Below, in pieces: positions 3,985 to 45,566 of a stretch of 64,000 nt of DNA (positions are counted from its first letter, which is position 1; the number at the start of each line of letters is the position of its first letter). The translations under genes and the position numbers were made by a program. Where the stretch lies: assembly GCA_965247265.1 (NCBI GenBank), contig OZ252002.1:2108863-2172862 (forward strand). Reading direction: 5' to 3'. The notes under the pieces were generated by a model, which was not told where the DNA came from, did not search any database, and was given only the letters and a program-made list of their open reading frames with translations. Origin of the DNA: Gammaproteobacteria bacterium. Lineage in GTDB: Bacteria > Pseudomonadota > Gammaproteobacteria > UBA4575.

Positions 3985-4057
3985 GTGAAAATTAAGGACT
4001 TGTTATTAACAATAATTATGAATATTAAAATTTACAGTTTTATTCAAAGCACGACAA

Positions 4058-4414
4058 CTAATCGTATTCATTATACTTTTTAGAACTGCCTTTAACTTTT
4101 TCAATCGGGTATCGCTTGTCATTGAGTTCCATCTTGCGCTTAGTCACTTCCATTAAATCAATATCTAATTGATCAGTAATTCGTAACAAAAATATAAATA
4201 TATCTGCAAGCTCAAAGGCTACAGCAGCTTGGCGTTGAGGTGAGAGCTTTTCGCTTTGTTTTTCTGTCATCCACTGAAAATTTTCAAGTAGTTCAGCTGC
4301 TTCAACTGATAGCGCCATAGCTAAATTTTTTGGGCTATGAAATTGCTCCCAATCTCGTACCTGTGCAAATATTTTTAGCTTAGACTTGAGTTCTTCAATT
4401 GCAGGTTCACTCAT
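4058..4414 (-). CDS. MazG-like nucleotide pyrophosphohydrolase
   Basis: 118 aa; 'LAMALSVEAAELLE...FELADIFIFL' EExxE/D core. Confidence 0.6.
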   Translation of the reverse strand: MSEPAIEELKSKLKIFAQVRDWEQFHSPKNLAMALSVEAAELLENFQWMTEKQSEKLSPQRQAAVAFELADIFIFLLRITDQLDIDLMEVTKRKMELNDKRYPIEKVKGSSKKYNEYD

Positions 4415-39782: not shown

Positions 39783-40280
39783 ATGAATATTGTTAATGGA
39801 CAAGATGCATTCACAAACGATTCATCTAACGGTAATGAATCATACATTAACGCTGACATTATTACTCATATCGAAACGATTAATAGTATCGCGCGTAAAA
39901 AAACTACTGATTATTTAAGAAAGTATCAAGTCAACTATCAGCAATGGTGCATACTCAAGGCAATCCATCTTGAACTCGCAACCACGCCTGCCAAAGTCTC
40001 TGCATCTATTTTTACAGATTCGGGCACTATAAGCCGGCAACTTGAATTGCTTGAAGCCAAGGGACTTGTCAGCCGCGAGCACAGTAAAAAAGATCGAAGA
40101 GTCGTAAATTTAGCACTATCGCCAAAGGGTGAACACATTGCGAGTGATGGAATTAAATTTACTGATAAGCTTTTTGAATCCGTTCAAAATGAAATTGGAG
40201 ACATTAAAACTACTGAGTTGCTTGAAACATTAGAAAAAGCACTTAGAAGTTCTGCCTTTCAATTAGATAATGACCATTAG
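39783..40280 (+). CDS. MarR-family transcriptional regulator
   Basis: winged helix-turn-helix 'QQWCILKAIHL...LLEAKGLVSREHSKKDRRVVNLALSPKG'. Confidence 0.7.
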   Translation: MNIVNGQDAFTNDSSNGNESYINADIITHIETINSIARKKTTDYLRKYQVNYQQWCILKAIHLELATTPAKVSASIFTDSGTISRQLELLEAKGLVSREHSKKDRRVVNLALSPKGEHIASDGIKFTDKLFESVQNEIGDIKTTELLETLEKALRSSAFQLDNDH

Positions 40281-40938
40281 AAATCCTAACCACTAAAAAC
40301 AGACATATCCCATCAAGAATTGAAAAGCCCCCTATACAGGGGCTTTATTATGTAAGCGTATAAAACGCTTGGAGTTGGACTCGGTATAGTGATCTTTAAG
40401 TATTACTGATATTTATGTTGATACAAATAAATTGCAGTAGAAACCATAACTACTAATAATGCGATTACATCAAATAGAATAATTGTTTGAGTGGCTTCCA
40501 TTTTACTTCCCCACTTATTTACAAGTTAATACGGGCTCCCCGCAATTCAATATTTCCATTTAACGCATAAATATTTTTACTGCGTTCTGAGCTGTGCAAT
40601 CCAGTCGTATATCTCTAAGACTTGATCACGACTCAAAAAACAATCTTGCGCTTCGTCTGTTTGAAACGTTGGCTTAGAAGAAAATGACTGCAACTTTTCT
40701 TTGGCACGAAGCTTTAACAACCTAGTTGGATGATAAAGTCGTTGAATACTTTTAGCTGATAACATAAATACTCCTTAATTCAACTAAACTTACTTCATAT
40801 TGCCAGATGGTCCCCTGGCCTCACTGTTATAACTCATTGTATTGATGTGATATTAACTTTCTACACTCACTTTACCGAATGGCTTCTCAAATATGATTAA
40901 TGGCGCATAAGTCACGGATTTTACGTAAGTTTTTTGAA

Positions 40939-41409
40939 CTACGTCACACTTTTTACGTCATTTTTTAAAGATGAACTATTATCAATTGGTATTGCGTACG
41001 CCTGATGTATTATTTTCGGCCAACGAGAGTACCAAGCATTTTCCTGCTCAGGCTCTATTGTTACTACATACACGCGTTGCTCATATTTATAATGCGCAAT
41101 GAGCCCTTGCAAGCACTGCCCCTTTATTAAATCAAACCAATGATTCGTACCATCGTATGATTTTTCCATAAATGATTTAACTGGTACCTTTACTGGTTTT
41201 GGCAACCATCGATCCCATTGCCCTTTATATATGGTTTCTAATCTAGCCCAACCCCCTAATGGGAGCTTACCCTTTTGCTGTTTACGTCTCCCCCACGGCA
41301 CAAGTATTAAATTATTTGATTTTGTAATTACAGGAAGCGTTGCAATTGGATTATGAAAATACACACGTTGGTCATTATTCTCATAAGAATATAATATTGC
41401 ACTACTCAT
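40939..41409 (-). CDS. unknown protein translationally coupled to dinB (third gene of the SOS cassette)
   Basis: ATGA start/stop overlap at 41406-41409 (start at the internal Met of ORF 40939..41439); no recognisable domain. Confidence 0.4.
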   Translation of the reverse strand: MSSAILYSYENNDQRVYFHNPIATLPVITKSNNLILVPWGRRKQQKGKLPLGGWARLETIYKGQWDRWLPKPVKVPVKSFMEKSYDGTNHWFDLIKGQCLQGLIAHYKYEQRVYVVTIEPEQENAWYSRWPKIIHQAYAIPIDNSSSLKNDVKSVT

Positions 41410-42626
41410 ACTGTTTTGCGGTGCCCATCTGGCTTCCATGCAGGTGCAATAACATTTGGCATATCTGAACGATGCAATAAATTTGCAGGTGCCAGTGTGA
41501 ATTCACCGTAACGTTCGTTAATTTGATCCATTGCTGAATTAATTTGATCACGCTTTACATCCTGCTTGCTAAATAATGAAAATTGGTGGCTTTTATTTTT
41601 TGGATCTAGGGCAGTAATTTGCACCTGGAAACAACCTTGGCCTTGCCAATAATTACACAACAAACCATTTGCGAGTGCTTTGATTTTATAACTGTCATCT
41701 GTAGGCTCTTGCGTTTTTAATTTTTTAGCCAACCATCCTTGTTCGGTTAAAAAACCTATAAAGAAATATTGTGCTTCAAACCTGTGTTTGCGCAAGCGCG
41801 TGGCCACCTTTTCTGCCATATGGTGCAGATACGCTTTTAAAGTTTTTAGATCTTTTGTATTTGGTGGCATTACTTTGCCATGCCCAATCGATTTGGGTGC
41901 AGGAATAGTTTGTTGTAATGGTTCAGGGTCTAAACCTTGCGCCATATACCAGATTCGCCGACCGGGATTACCAAAGCGCCTGGCAAGCTCACCGATGGGC
42001 AACTTCTCCATATCACCACAAACATAAACACCTCGGTCTTCCAAATACTTGCCTATCCCTTTGGAAATGCCACATAATTCTGTTACAGAGATACCTTTTA
42101 AATAATCTCTAGATTCCCAGGGAGGTATGACAACCAAGCCATCGGGCTTGTCGCGCTTCGCGGCATGTTTAGCGGTAGTTTTATCACCGCTAATTCCAAC
42201 ACTGCAGGGCACTTCCCCTGTATCGTAAACGACATCTTTAACTAGCTTTCCAATATTCGCAGGATTGCCATAAATACCTTGGCAATGCGTAATATCAAGA
42301 AATGCCTCATCAACCGAAAAAACTTCAATATCAGGCGTAATGTTTTGTAACGCAGACATAATATTAGTAGAGGCCTCTGCGTAACGATAAGGTCTAGCCG
42401 GAACCTGGACGACCTCAGGACATAATTGCAAAGCTTGCTTGAGCCGTGTGCCTGTTTTAATTCCATATTGCCTTGCTTCGTAAGAGCACGTAATAAAACA
42501 AGTGCCTGTTAAGCCGTTTGTAATGCCGATAGGTCTACCACGTAATTCTGGATAATCATGCTGCTCAATACTGGCAAAGAATGCATCCATATCGATTAAC
42601 ACAATGGCGCGATCCCAACGTTTCAT
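41406..42626 (-). CDS. dinB: Y-family DNA polymerase (DinB/Pol IV-like) with intact catalytic residues
   Basis: 'LIDMDAFFASIE' and 'SVDEAFLDIT' catalytic Asp/Glu motifs; 406 aa; lies 3 bp after lexA. Confidence 0.8.
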   Translation of the reverse strand: MKRWDRAIVLIDMDAFFASIEQHDYPELRGRPIGITNGLTGTCFITCSYEARQYGIKTGTRLKQALQLCPEVVQVPARPYRYAEASTNIMSALQNITPDIEVFSVDEAFLDITHCQGIYGNPANIGKLVKDVVYDTGEVPCSVGISGDKTTAKHAAKRDKPDGLVVIPPWESRDYLKGISVTELCGISKGIGKYLEDRGVYVCGDMEKLPIGELARRFGNPGRRIWYMAQGLDPEPLQQTIPAPKSIGHGKVMPPNTKDLKTLKAYLHHMAEKVATRLRKHRFEAQYFFIGFLTEQGWLAKKLKTQEPTDDSYKIKALANGLLCNYWQGQGCFQVQITALDPKNKSHQFSLFSKQDVKRDQINSAMDQINERYGEFTLAPANLLHRSDMPNVIAPAWKPDGHRKTV

Positions 42627-42629
42627 TTC

Positions 42630-43220
42630 TCATGTATACATTCTCACTTGACCAACTAATACGCCTTGTATTGTGATGCGGTCAGCCGAATAATCTTTGG
42701 GTTGCATATTCCTATTCGCAGGAACCAAACGAATAATATCTTTGCTAAGAAATTTAATTCTCTTTAGTGTTGCTTCATGGTCATCAACAAGCGCGACAAC
42801 AATTTGGTTATTACGTGCAGTATTGGATTGTTCAATAATAACGAGATCCCCACTACGAATGCCTTCATCTATCATGGAATGGCCTTTAACTTGTAATACA
42901 TAGCGATTAGAACCACCTAACAAGTGTGCAAAACTAATAAGTTCACGATCCTCAATCGCCTCAATAGGTTTTCCTGCAGCAATGCGCCCAAGTAGAGGTA
43001 ATTCATCGTAATCAGGATGATCAACGAGCTCTATGCCACGGTGCCTTTGATGTCGCCGAATATATCCCTGCTCTTCCAGAACTGATAAATACCTATGAAC
43101 CACACCTTTAGACTGAATGCCCAAGCCCTCAGCAATCTCCGTCAGTAAAGGCGCCTTGCGGTATCTAAGGAGGTAATCCGCTATAAATCGCAGTGTGGTT
43201 TGTTCTCGCTCAGTTAGCAT
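42630..43220 (-). CDS. lexA: LexA repressor
   Basis: 'RIAAGKPIE' Ala-Gly self-cleavage site, 'GHSM' Ser and 'LKRI' Lys of the S24 peptidase domain, N-terminal helix-turn-helix. Confidence 0.85.
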   Translation of the reverse strand: MLTEREQTTLRFIADYLLRYRKAPLLTEIAEGLGIQSKGVVHRYLSVLEEQGYIRRHQRHRGIELVDHPDYDELPLLGRIAAGKPIEAIEDRELISFAHLLGGSNRYVLQVKGHSMIDEGIRSGDLVIIEQSNTARNNQIVVALVDDHEATLKRIKFLSKDIIRLVPANRNMQPKDYSADRITIQGVLVGQVRMYT

Positions 43221-43224
43221 ATAT

Positions 43225-43264
43225 GTTCTCTCTAAGTTCTCATAATAGAGAACTTAAAGAGAAC
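43225..43264. promoter_or_regulatory. candidate LexA operator array (GTTC/GAAC tetrads) in the lexA promoter
   Basis: GTTC at 43225 and 43237, GAAC at 43250 and 43261; includes GAAC-N7-GAAC and the palindrome AGTTCTC-N5-GAGAACT; no CTGT-N8-ACAG box present. Confidence 0.3.
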
Positions 43265-43326
43265 TTTCAACCTCTATGCCAACTAAATTGCTTGGATCCA
43301 ATTAAAATTAAAGCAGACATTAAAAC

Positions 43327-44379
43327 TTATCTATTTGGATACGCAAGAGGTGGTGCTCTTAATTTAGATTGTATACGTCTTCTTAATCCAAAGAATTTTT
43401 TATCAATCCAATTAAACCACACAAATTTGAGCTTAGCGCAAACTCTTAAATAGTGATATGTTGATCTTATATTTCCTCTATTAACTATTTCTTCCAAATC
43501 CGGCAAATTCATAAATTTAGTTGCTGAATACAAATTCGCATAAAGTTGTCGGTCAACATCATGCTTACGCGCAAGAGCTAACATCTCTTGCCAATCAACA
43601 CCATAGGAATACATGAGTTGTGTTCTGGCTAACTCATGTAACTGCCGAATCTCTATATATCCTCTTTTGTGAAGCCTATCAATGATACAACTATGTAAAA
43701 AACTATGAAAAATTCTGTATGTTGGCACTAAAACCTTAGCTTCAGCATTATTTGGCAATACTATATCAACACTCTTTTCCCATGCTAACTTAGTTGGGAA
43801 TATTTTTTGTTTTGAGTAGCGTACTAGATCACGATGCAATTCAACCATTGCACATTCACCATCTTTAATTAAGGGCGGATAGTGATGATGCATATAAATA
43901 AAATCCATATGTTCGCCAGTATACCTATAGCCATATTTAATTAAATTTTTGCTGACTCTTTCAATTTCATTTTCAGGTACTAAAATATCTAGATCTGATA
44001 ATAGACGATCACCATAATCTGCGAAAGTATCTAAAAATAAATGGGCTGCACCTTTCATCAAAAGAGGCTTCACGCCTAAACTATTAATCACTGAAATCGC
44101 ATCCATTAATTGTGATTTCATTAATAAATTGCGTTTGCAATTCAATAGGTTCATTTCTTTAATATAAGAAATGAAATCTTTTGGAATCTGATTAAGTAAC
44201 TTTTTATCGACTAATGTAGGATAAAGTGCCTGCACAATTGAGTGATTCCCAGCAATTTGTGCTACCAGCTCCCACTCAATATTTTCATTCTTCTTTAACA
44301 GATGAATTAAACCATCACGTGAAAAATATGGCGAAACTGTTCCAGCCACAAATTTATATGCTTCATAGTAACTCTGCAT
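43327..44379 (-). CDS. NTP_transf_5-type nucleotidyltransferase, the type found in lasso/RiPP kinase clusters
   Basis: 350 aa; 'GDRLLSDLDILVPENE' Pol-beta-like GS...DxD motif; directly downstream of the HPrK-like gene. Confidence 0.6.
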   Translation of the reverse strand: MQSYYEAYKFVAGTVSPYFSRDGLIHLLKKNENIEWELVAQIAGNHSIVQALYPTLVDKKLLNQIPKDFISYIKEMNLLNCKRNLLMKSQLMDAISVINSLGVKPLLMKGAAHLFLDTFADYGDRLLSDLDILVPENEIERVSKNLIKYGYRYTGEHMDFIYMHHHYPPLIKDGECAMVELHRDLVRYSKQKIFPTKLAWEKSVDIVLPNNAEAKVLVPTYRIFHSFLHSCIIDRLHKRGYIEIRQLHELARTQLMYSYGVDWQEMLALARKHDVDRQLYANLYSATKFMNLPDLEEIVNRGNIRSTYHYLRVCAKLKFVWFNWIDKKFFGLRRRIQSKLRAPPLAYPNR

Positions 44380-44422
44380 TACAACAACTCTGTAACTAGA
44401 TCTGCTGCGCTTTTAAGATCAT

Positions 44423-45566
44423 TTATCTGCAATTCAAATGCAGGAATGTCGGGATCCACGCAATTAACTCAGTGACCGTATTTGTGTTTAATGTCTGACC
44501 TGTGTAATAGCCTGCTTTTGTCAAACGCACTAAAGCCTCAGCAGATGATATTTTCTCGATGTGCGTATCAAATTCTTGTGAGTAAACAGGAAACACAATA
44601 GCTTTGACAGGTTCACCATATTTAATTGATTATTATTGGGTAAATTGCAAGGTTGTATATATTTAACAACCTTATCATCCTGCCTCAAATGAATAGGCAT
44701 ATCGGTGATACTTGGTAAGAATTCTTCAATGACATCCCAACTTCCTTCTTTAAGACCGATAACGCCTGGTGCTGGACGAATTTTTTTATCGTGCGTCAGA
44801 ATTGATACTTCGTCTGTAAATACTTTTTTCCTAAGCACATCAGCGCTGCCACTAATGTAGATTTTCCACTACCTGGACTTCCACTTAAAAGCACAACACC
44901 ATTATCATCTGAAATTGCGCCGGCATGAAATACTGAAAGATTATCAGCCTCTTGGTAACCTGTGATTAAAATAAACGCATTGGTAATTGGAGCTATTTCA
45001 TTCAGAGAATCACATGTAGCGAGCACTTTACCCAATTTAATAAATTCAAAACGATTTCCAACTTCAAGTATAGTAATATTATGCATTCGTGAAGAGCTAT
45101 CTGTCTCTTTCAAATGAGAAACTATCGGAGTTACAACCTTTAGGATAGACACACTTGATGCATTAATACAAAATGTTGAATCCAAGTATTGAAAAGTTCC
45201 ACAGTGAAATGAATGAATTTTATCTACATTTAATTTTGACTTATTTTTTAGATTAAATAATTTTTCATCATCAGCTAAATTATTTGCAATTTTTTTATCA
45301 CCAATAAATCCTAAATTAAGCCACTCTTCAAATATCAGCGACACATCAGATATAATCTCTTCTTTTAACAAACCATATTTTTTAGATATACATTTTGTTA
45401 TCTCATCAATTGATAGTTCTTGCTCATGCAGATTCCAAATCTCTGAAGCTGTTTGATTCAGTAATGCCAGTTCCTTCGAATAATCGTCAAACAGAATCAG
45501 CTCATTTTCGATTGAGAATGATCTGATTGCCCTATTTTGATGTGGGTATGTAGGCAAACAATCCAT
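44423..45566 (-). pseudogene. PqqD-like RRE fused to an HPr-kinase-C-like (lasso-peptide kinase-like) domain, with at least 2 frameshifts
   Basis: N-terminal 'ELILFDDYSKELALLNQTASEIWNL' (PqqD/RRE); P-loop 'LLSGSPGSGKSTL' (HPrK C-terminal domain). Reading frame changes near 44800-44840 and 44530-44600 and continues to the TAA at 44423. Confidence 0.6.

Follow-up and report, generated by a model that had tools for sequence, protein, structure and literature searches.

LexA is a textbook regulator whose binding motif has changed repeatedly; such motif changes are regarded as monophyletic and, in many cases, as the sequel to a duplication of lexA. Here, we analysed a 64-kb stretch of gammaproteobacterial DNA on contig OZ252002.1 (referred to below, at its full length, as the window), in which a lexA gene is followed on the same strand by genes for a Y-family DNA polymerase (polY) and a short protein (orfX). 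With a probability of roughly 80%, we consider this region to be an autoregulated, LexA-repressed translesion-synthesis operon, lexA–polY–orfX.

The operator of this operon is closest to that of the alphaproteobacterial LexA, with which it shares, in silico, the GTTC unit, the 7-nt gap and the direct-repeat geometry (PMC3323433; PMC8565304). The recognition helices of the two proteins have the pattern S-K-x-G-x-H-R in common (SKGVVHR in the window versus SKSGIHR in Alphaproteobacteria). The systems differ in the host, which is a gammaproteobacterium in the case of the window, and in the conserved unit, which in the window is the hexamer GTTCTC. They also differ in the protein itself, since the named Rhodobacterales LexAs are 229–249 amino acids long and have a linker that is ~35–45 residues longer, whereas the window protein has only 196 amino acids. 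With the E. coli-type LexA, the window protein shares the domain architecture, the cleavage site, the catalytic dyad, a similar length (196 versus 202 aa) and, as proposed here, autoregulation from its own promoter. However, the recognition helix is SKGVVHRYLSVLEE in the window and SPNAAEEHLKALAR in E. coli, and the window lacks the canonical CTGT-N8-ACAG box. In other Gammaproteobacteria, this canonical box does serve orthologous polY–orfX operons.

Damage-inducible translesion operons that begin with lexA and have their own non-standard operator are known as well. Examples are lexA2–imuA–imuB–dnaE2 of Pseudomonas putida and lexA–imuB-C–polY of Geobacter (PMC6511836; PMC3765255). The window differs from such cassettes in having no imuA, imuB, dnaE2 or ImuB-C, with only an intact polY and orfX following lexA; the partner in the window is a predicted SRAP-fold protein, and the window-type operator also serves operons without lexA. 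Operons in which the gene of an S24 repressor is combined with those of a Y-family polymerase and an SRAP-fold protein are already known from the described SRAP–DinB(–LexA) neighbourhoods (Aravind, Anand and Iyer 2013, PMC3765255). What is new here is that a LexA family of Gammaproteobacteria has an operator of the alphaproteobacterial style and heads an operon together with a Y-family polymerase other than DinB and a short protein of SRAP fold. No report of a GTTC-type motif in Gammaproteobacteria was found in the literature searched, which omits most subscription journals. Spread over many lineages of Gammaproteobacteria, such a direct-repeat operator would be a further, well-sampled example of motif change.

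The lexA promoter and its direct repeats

The lexA promoter contains two exact copies of the repeat GTTCTC-N5-GTTCTC, designated O1 and O2, which are arranged around the –10 hexamer as follows:

43265..43270, minus strand: TTGAAA, the –35 hexamer in front of lexA, part of the sigma-70-like site that scored best in 40500–43500
43248..43264, minus strand: operator O1, GTTCTCTTTAAGTTCTC, an exact GTTCTC-N5-GTTCTC that makes up the whole 17-nt spacer
43242..43247, minus strand: –10 hexamer TATTAT, which is the loop of the O1/O2 dyad
43225..43241, plus strand: operator O2, coding-strand reading GAGAACTTAGAGAGAAC, an exact match and an inverted copy of O1

The TTGAAA hexamer, the 17-nt spacer and TATTAT together agree with a sigma-70-like promoter at 10 of 12 positions. 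O2 follows the –10 hexamer without a gap, lies over the predicted transcription start and leaves 4 nt to the ATG of lexA. On the minus strand, the GTTC tetrads start at 43264 and 43253 and the GAAC tetrads at 43239 and 43228. Both GTTC-N7-GTTC and GAAC-N7-GAAC occur only here in the 64 kb, and so does the exact GTTCTC-N5-GTTCTC. The repeated unit is the hexamer GTTCTC, and according to our own calculation, the chance expectation is ~0.01 exact copies per 64 kb. O1 and O2 also form a perfect 17-bp dyad centred on the –10 hexamer, which, if transcribed, would fold with –26.5 kcal/mol (z –7).

The original prediction, made from the sequence of the window, had pointed to four GTTC/GAAC tetrads including GAAC-N7-GAAC, and these can now be refined to the two GTTCTC-N5-GTTCTC copies. 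The AGTTCTC/GAGAACT palindrome that it reported is the inner part of the 17-bp O1/O2 dyad. Its statement that the lexA promoter has no CTGT-N8-ACAG box holds for the whole window on a closer scan: the exact box is absent from the 64 kb, and the best match in the lexA promoter carries mismatches at 3 of the 8 positions. A third, degenerate repeat, GTTCTCGCTCAGTTAGC, lies on the plus strand at 43202–43218, within lexA codons 1–6 and at a distance of 23 nt from O2. With its 2 mismatches, it is of a quality for which 2.3 sites are expected per window, and it was rejected as non-significant.

From this layout, the following mechanism can be proposed. LexA would bind the GTTCTC direct repeat with its 11-bp period; we infer both the binding and its stoichiometry. 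As O1 makes up the entire spacer between the –35 and –10 hexamers and O2 lies over the transcription start, the bound LexA would exclude RNA polymerase from the promoter. Upon DNA damage, LexA would cleave itself between Ala82 and Gly83 by means of its Ser115/Lys153 dyad, presumably stimulated by RecA, and the promoter would be freed. Its transcription would then provide new LexA, the Y-family polymerase with its clamp-binding-like and UmuC-like C-terminal motifs, and the translationally coupled SRAP-fold protein.

The three genes of the operon are located as follows:

43220..42630, minus strand: lexA, 196 aa
42626..41406, minus strand: polY, 406 aa
41409..40939, minus strand: orfX, 156 aa, with a start that overlaps the polY stop (ATGA)

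They stand head to tail in one tight unit with a single 3-nt gap between lexA and polY. The unit had been described before as lexA-dinB-orfX on the minus strand; its tightness and the ATGA overlap stand, while the several gaps mentioned there reduce to this one. A search of the 64-kb window against Rfam gave no match.

Conservation of the operator in related loci

For the comparison, we used 84 related loci (designated by L numbers; 814 kb of sequence were scanned in all), with 44 promoters that have lexA as the first gene. GTTC-N7-GTTC is present at the same promoter place in 35 of the 44. The typical layout of a lexA-first promoter is TTGAAw-GTTCTC-N5-GTTCTC-TAT, in which the repeat again constitutes the promoter spacer, and TTGAAw immediately ahead of the repeat is kept in most of the lexA-first loci. 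The downstream copy, GAGAAC-N5-GAGAAC, is found in 14 lexA-first promoters and in 8 promoters with polY as the first gene. Both copies are present in 12 of the 44 lexA-first promoters and the upstream copy alone in 23, and the distance from the upstream to the downstream repeat varies from ~6 to >20 nt among the loci. The non-canonical operator suspected earlier is thus a conserved element, namely a direct repeat with the sequence GTTC-N7-GTTC, of the alphaproteobacterial type.

The 47 distinct sites show that conservation extends beyond the GTTC tetrad, which was itself fixed by the search. The T and C that follow it are present in 46–47 of the 47 sites in the first unit and in 40–45 in the second, and the 5-nt gap is A/T-rich. 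The resulting consensus is aaT-GTTCTC-wwwww-GTTCTC-tat with an 11-bp period. When at most one mismatch was allowed, 70 sites were found in the 814 kb; each of the 70 is located no more than 200 nt upstream of the gene with which the cassette begins, with none elsewhere, and one full shuffle gave 4 sites. It should be noted that every recovered site has a gap of 5 nt, which was the only gap length searched.

The direct repeat is not confined to lexA promoters. Operons of polY and orfX without an adjacent lexA carry GAGAAC-N5-GAGAAC after a TATCCT or TATCAT –10 hexamer in L011, L013, L018, L020, L023, L038 and L058. Other polY–orfX operons without an adjacent lexA (L041, L045, L052, L064–66, L073, L076–78 and L080) carry the canonical SOS box TACTGTATATAATCACAGTA. 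As the same polY–orfX operon has either the direct repeat or the canonical SOS box depending on the lineage, it appears to be LexA-controlled whichever of the two operators a genome has. The orthologous operons under the two operators provide a natural control.

On chromosome OZ244982.1, the double operator is present at two promoters located 130 kb apart, one of a lexA–polY pair (L081) and the other of a polY–orfX pair without lexA (L004). Since no lexA neighbours the second promoter, the repressor would reach one or more further promoters of this genome in trans.

Variation of the operator goes along with changes in the recognition helix of LexA. At loci whose repeats are GTTCTC, this helix is S(K/R)Gx(V/I)HR. 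By comparison, the GTTGTC repeats of L079 go together with HRANISKH, the GTACTC repeats of L036 with SRGTVNRY, in which His is replaced by Asn, and the variant operator of L047 with SRGAVRRH, in which His is replaced by Arg. In the lexA promoters of L034 and L053 (~4070–4155) and of L047 (1–52), a palindrome of ~50 bp, G(T/A)(T/C)CTCACTTCGTAGCCTA...TAGGCTACGAAGTGAG(A/T)AC, replaces the two simple direct repeats. Although the LexA family is the same, this long palindrome represents another type of operator architecture.

A lexA–polY pair without orfX and with the same GTTCTC-N5-GTTCTC repeat is located at 4001–5810 in L082–L084. The LexA of this pair (P0111) is 66% identical to the window LexA and is recorded on 74 contigs and in 162 index blocks.

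The LexA, polymerase and SRAP-fold proteins

With the TIGR00498 model of LexA, the window protein reaches 141.2 bits (cut-off 110.95); its score is 33.7 bits for the LexA DNA-binding domain PF01726 (cut-off 23.7) and 94.5 bits for the S24 peptidase family PF00717 (cut-off 23.3). Its N-terminus is a winged helix-turn-helix with the recognition helix SKGVVHRY. The cleavage site Ala82–Gly83 lies in the AAG motif at 81–83, and the Ser115/Lys153 dyad is contained in GHSM and TLKR. These three motifs align with AAGEP, GMSM and TVKR of the E. coli LexA, and the alignments to both the E. coli and the Thermotoga LexA run over the full length.

Among thousands of LexA relatives, the closest 120 are 64–100% identical to the window protein, and the named ones belong to metagenome-assembled genomes (MAGs) of Gammaproteobacteria or Pseudomonadota. 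The best 150 matches among 1.84 billion cluster representatives score 125–216 bits. The helix S(K/R)Gx(V/I)HR is present in the majority of the highest-scoring ones, and none of the 150 has an E. coli-type recognition helix. One group among them is of the alphaproteobacterial type, as named Rhodobacterales LexAs came up when one of its members was used as the query. The full-length identity of the window LexA is 35–37% to alphaproteobacterial LexAs (118–126 bits), 35% to that of E. coli (96 bits) and 36% to a provisional sequence of that of B. subtilis. Within the DNA-binding domain, the corresponding values are 39–42%, 32% and, with the same provisional B. subtilis sequence, 37%.

In a neighbour-joining tree with 100 bootstraps, all 20 sampled cassette LexAs fall into one group of 55 taxa, and the alphaproteobacterial group joins in the next larger clade. 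The bootstrap values there are 0–10%, which leaves the deep nodes without support either for common ancestry with the alphaproteobacterial LexA or for convergence. The original prediction had proposed to examine whether this LexA is set apart from its host lineage; instead, it clusters with related LexAs of gammaproteobacterial MAGs that use the same operator. These comparisons indicate that the window LexA belongs to a separate, deep family and that it is neither a canonical gammaproteobacterial LexA nor a recent alphaproteobacterial import. With its short linker, it would allow the study of how a dimer reads a direct repeat.

The product of polY matches IMS with 142.5 bits and IMS_C with 40.8 bits, and its DMD and SVDE acidic motifs are present, in line with the earlier description of a catalytically intact Y-family polymerase. 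Its scores are below every NCBIfam cut-off for DinB (238.6 versus 381 for PRK03103 and 222.4 versus 256 for PRK02406). The C-terminus contains a clamp-like motif, QFSLF, followed by a putative short UmuC-type motif. Residues 362–382 match positions 3–23 of DUF4113 (RecA-NT-like) with an E-value of 0.0034, and the 17.8 bits of this match fall short of the gathering score, which is 24. This first part of DUF4113 alone corresponds to the short UmuC-type motif, which is common to many Y-family groups (Timinskas and Venclovas, PMC6511836). Judging by these motifs and scores, PolY appears to be a non-DinB Y-family polymerase that is catalytically competent.

Chromosome OZ244982.1 has two copies of polY. 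The lexA–polY pair without orfX in L081 (4013–5821) is syntenic with the window, and L004 (4784–6429) contains the second polY, with orfX behind it and a double operator of its own. With 79.8% identity, this L004 copy is nearer to the window polY than the syntenic L081 copy is (70.7%), and this proximity to the non-syntenic copy suggests an exchange between paralogues.

Relatives of orfX were found in 261 GTDB representative genomes. In all loci that cover the upstream sequence, orfX stands directly behind polY, and lexA precedes polY in about half. The 80 orfX loci listed are nearly all titled as MAGs of Gammaproteobacteria or as unclassified Pseudomonadota, the sole exception being one Anaerolineae MAG. 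The named groups among these 80 include Woeseiaceae, Arenicellales, Thioalkalispiraceae, Ectothiorhodospiraceae and Acidiferrobacteraceae. Legionella, of which some members were said in the original prediction to lack lexA, is named in none of the titles. The pair lexA–polY may be the core unit, to which orfX is an optional addition.

The 156-aa product of orfX, previously regarded as unknown, has an SRAP/YedK-like fold in predicted models. For this, AlphaFold models were obtained for the window protein (predicted local distance difference test, pLDDT, 85.8) and for P0153, a family member of the Cys2 type (pLDDT 91.5). A Foldseek comparison of both models with the PDB returned only E. coli YedK (6kbu, 2icu) and Bordetella BB2244 (2bdv) at a probability of 1.00. 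The orfX matches had TMq values of 0.52–0.64 and a best E-value of 9.5e-4, and the next match had an E-value of at least 0.3 and a TM of ~0.2. At the sequence level, orfX has no Pfam or NCBIfam match, and a Pfam search at E ≤10 was empty for all 22 family members tried. A profile search of the PDB with orfX gave no sequence match to YedK. When orfX was aligned with YedK by hhalign, the probability was 0.3, and the sole aligned stretch was WYSRWPKI against IHDRRPLV.

The definition of the SRAP family comprises a length of 220–260 residues for the domain, an absolutely conserved Cys2, Asn and Glu in central positions and one C-terminal His (PMC3765255). The orfX family is shorter, with 136–156 aa versus 220–260 aa, and most of its members start with MCGG. 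Cys2 is present in 102 of 121 members and Ser2 in 16, which constitute the window clade. Position 127 is His in 100 of 121, in a motif HxRWP that resembles HDRRP of YedK; the window protein has Tyr127, and Ser2 and Tyr127 occur together in the 16 members of the window clade. Glu82 is invariant in the family, and the SRAP Asn position is apparently taken by an invariant Trp54, based on a by-eye alignment of WAR with NAR of YedK. On the strength of the models, we regard orfX as a short protein of predicted SRAP fold and do not file the window copy as a member of SRAP.

In YedK and HMCES, Cys2 crosslinks abasic sites in single-stranded DNA. By analogy, the orfX members with Cys2 could crosslink such sites in the same way, and the orfX protein probably binds abasic sites or single-stranded DNA or serves as a polymerase accessory. 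The Ser2/Tyr127 form of the window is probably unable to make the Cys2 thiazolidine crosslink; instead, it may associate with DNA or the polymerase in a non-covalent manner. This polymerase-coupled family of short SRAP-fold proteins, one subclade of which lacks both the Cys and the His, is a compact system for studying the role of SRAP beside translesion polymerases.

Alternative explanations and genomic context

Several points speak against a LexA-repressed operon read through a direct repeat. The evidence for it is computational throughout, and the exact repeat is missing in 7 of the 44 lexA-first promoters, some of which have variant or one-mismatch repeats. With only 196 aa and a short linker, the window LexA is such that the binding of a dimer to a direct repeat is not simply transferable from the alphaproteobacterial LexAs. 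Every operator site found lies at a cassette promoter, in sequence that contains no recA, ssb or other classical SOS gene. Lastly, the repeats of the window clade also form the perfect 17-bp dyad, which permits a palindromic reading. In that case, LexA would bind the inverted repeats (the inner GTTCTC-N6-GAGAAC and/or the outer pair) as a dyad operator, and the direct repeat would be incidental. This would agree with the stability of the dyad, with the palindromes bound by most characterised LexA proteins (PMC3323433) and with the absence of the long alphaproteobacterial linker. Nevertheless, we consider it improbable and take the direct repeat to be the binding unit, since the 23 promoters with only the upstream repeat have no inverted partner and polY-first promoters carry a single GAGAAC-N5-GAGAAC copy alone. 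Moreover, the distance between the repeats varies, yet the 5-nt gap, the one length searched, is constant in the 70 near-exact sites, all at cassette promoters. The strong hairpin that the dyad would form if transcribed could also point to a structural element, either an RNA or DNA hairpin acting as a terminator or insulator against read-through from the NTP_transf_5 gene or a mobile repeat, and the upstream gene on the same strand does end at 43327. However, no T-run follows the stem and a terminator scan is empty there, the loop is the –10 hexamer itself, most loci have one repeat only so that the hairpin is not conserved, and the repeat was never found away from cassette promoters. A structural element is therefore very improbable.

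The question of which genes this LexA controls is closer. It may be an extra, cassette-specific LexA that has spread laterally and controls only the lexA/polY/orfX operons, while a canonical LexA or another regulator runs the SOS regulon. Precedents would be LexA2 of P. putida, with imuA–imuB–dnaE2, and the lexA operon of Geobacter, the LexA of which does not bind recA. The location of all operators at cassette promoters fits this, as does a LexA unlike the E. coli type; that the motifs of duplicated lexA genes diverge has been described before (PMC8565304), and the lexA–polY operons of Geobacter are transcribed as self-contained units (PMC6511836). The cassette also adjoins a low-GC (33%) accessory locus resembling those for ribosomally synthesised and post-translationally modified peptides (RiPPs). 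On the other hand, the composition of the cassette is not atypical, as its GC content of 41.4% compares with 40.7% for citrate synthase and 42.4% for FadA in the window, and synteny is kept among close relatives. The family is very widespread among gammaproteobacterial MAGs, and its operator is also found at operons without lexA, where some lineages have it and others the canonical SOS box, without co-occurrence of the two. No E. coli-type lexA, and likewise no recA, ssb or other classical SOS gene, was seen in the 84 loci, the flanks of which are short. Taken together, we regard a cassette-specific role as possible but doubtful. Rather unlikely as a whole, and put forward only tentatively, is a joint interpretation in which this LexA family, in place of the E. 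coli type, serves a large radiation of uncultured Gammaproteobacteria (among them Woeseiaceae, Arenicellales, Thioalkalispiraceae, Acidiferrobacteraceae as well as the window clade) as master SOS repressor and reads the GTTCTC direct repeat with a short linker of E. coli length. In the same interpretation, the short SRAP-fold protein would be the obligate partner of a distinct translesion polymerase and would have lost covalent abasic-site crosslinking in the window clade (Cys2 to Ser and His to Tyr). If this LexA is the master repressor, direct-repeat binding would either date back to the ancestor of Alpha- and Gammaproteobacteria or have arisen independently.

The original prediction had also suggested that the cassette was acquired horizontally. 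A recent transfer is not supported, given the normal GC content and the normal local synteny, and the LexA and its operator are common to many gammaproteobacterial lineages. An ancient transfer or an old replacement by a paralogue may have taken place. The downstream neighbours orf62, MarR, orf85, orf296 and the MFS-acyltransferase gene are syntenic in L001, L003, L005 and L081.

The RiPP-like locus, noted earlier as adjoining the cassette, was indeed found directly upstream of lexA on the minus strand (43327–45566). It comprises genes for an NTP_transf_5 (PF14907) protein and a PqqD-domain/P-loop protein, which resemble accessory genes of lasso-peptide-like RiPPs and have a GC content of 33%. 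The pair of PqqD and NTP_transf_5 genes is also located upstream of lexA in L001 and L081.

On the other side of the cassette, the MarR-family regulator (39783–40280, plus strand) is convergent towards it and retains this synteny in L001, L003, L005 and L081; no link between this regulator and the GTTCTC repeats was found. Between the two, downstream of orfX, an open reading frame (ORF) of 62 aa without a family match lies on the minus strand at 40577–40765 and is preceded by an AAGGAG ribosome-binding site. Its counterparts in L001, L003 and L005 are 47–52% identical, and an ORF of equal length occupies the same position in L081.

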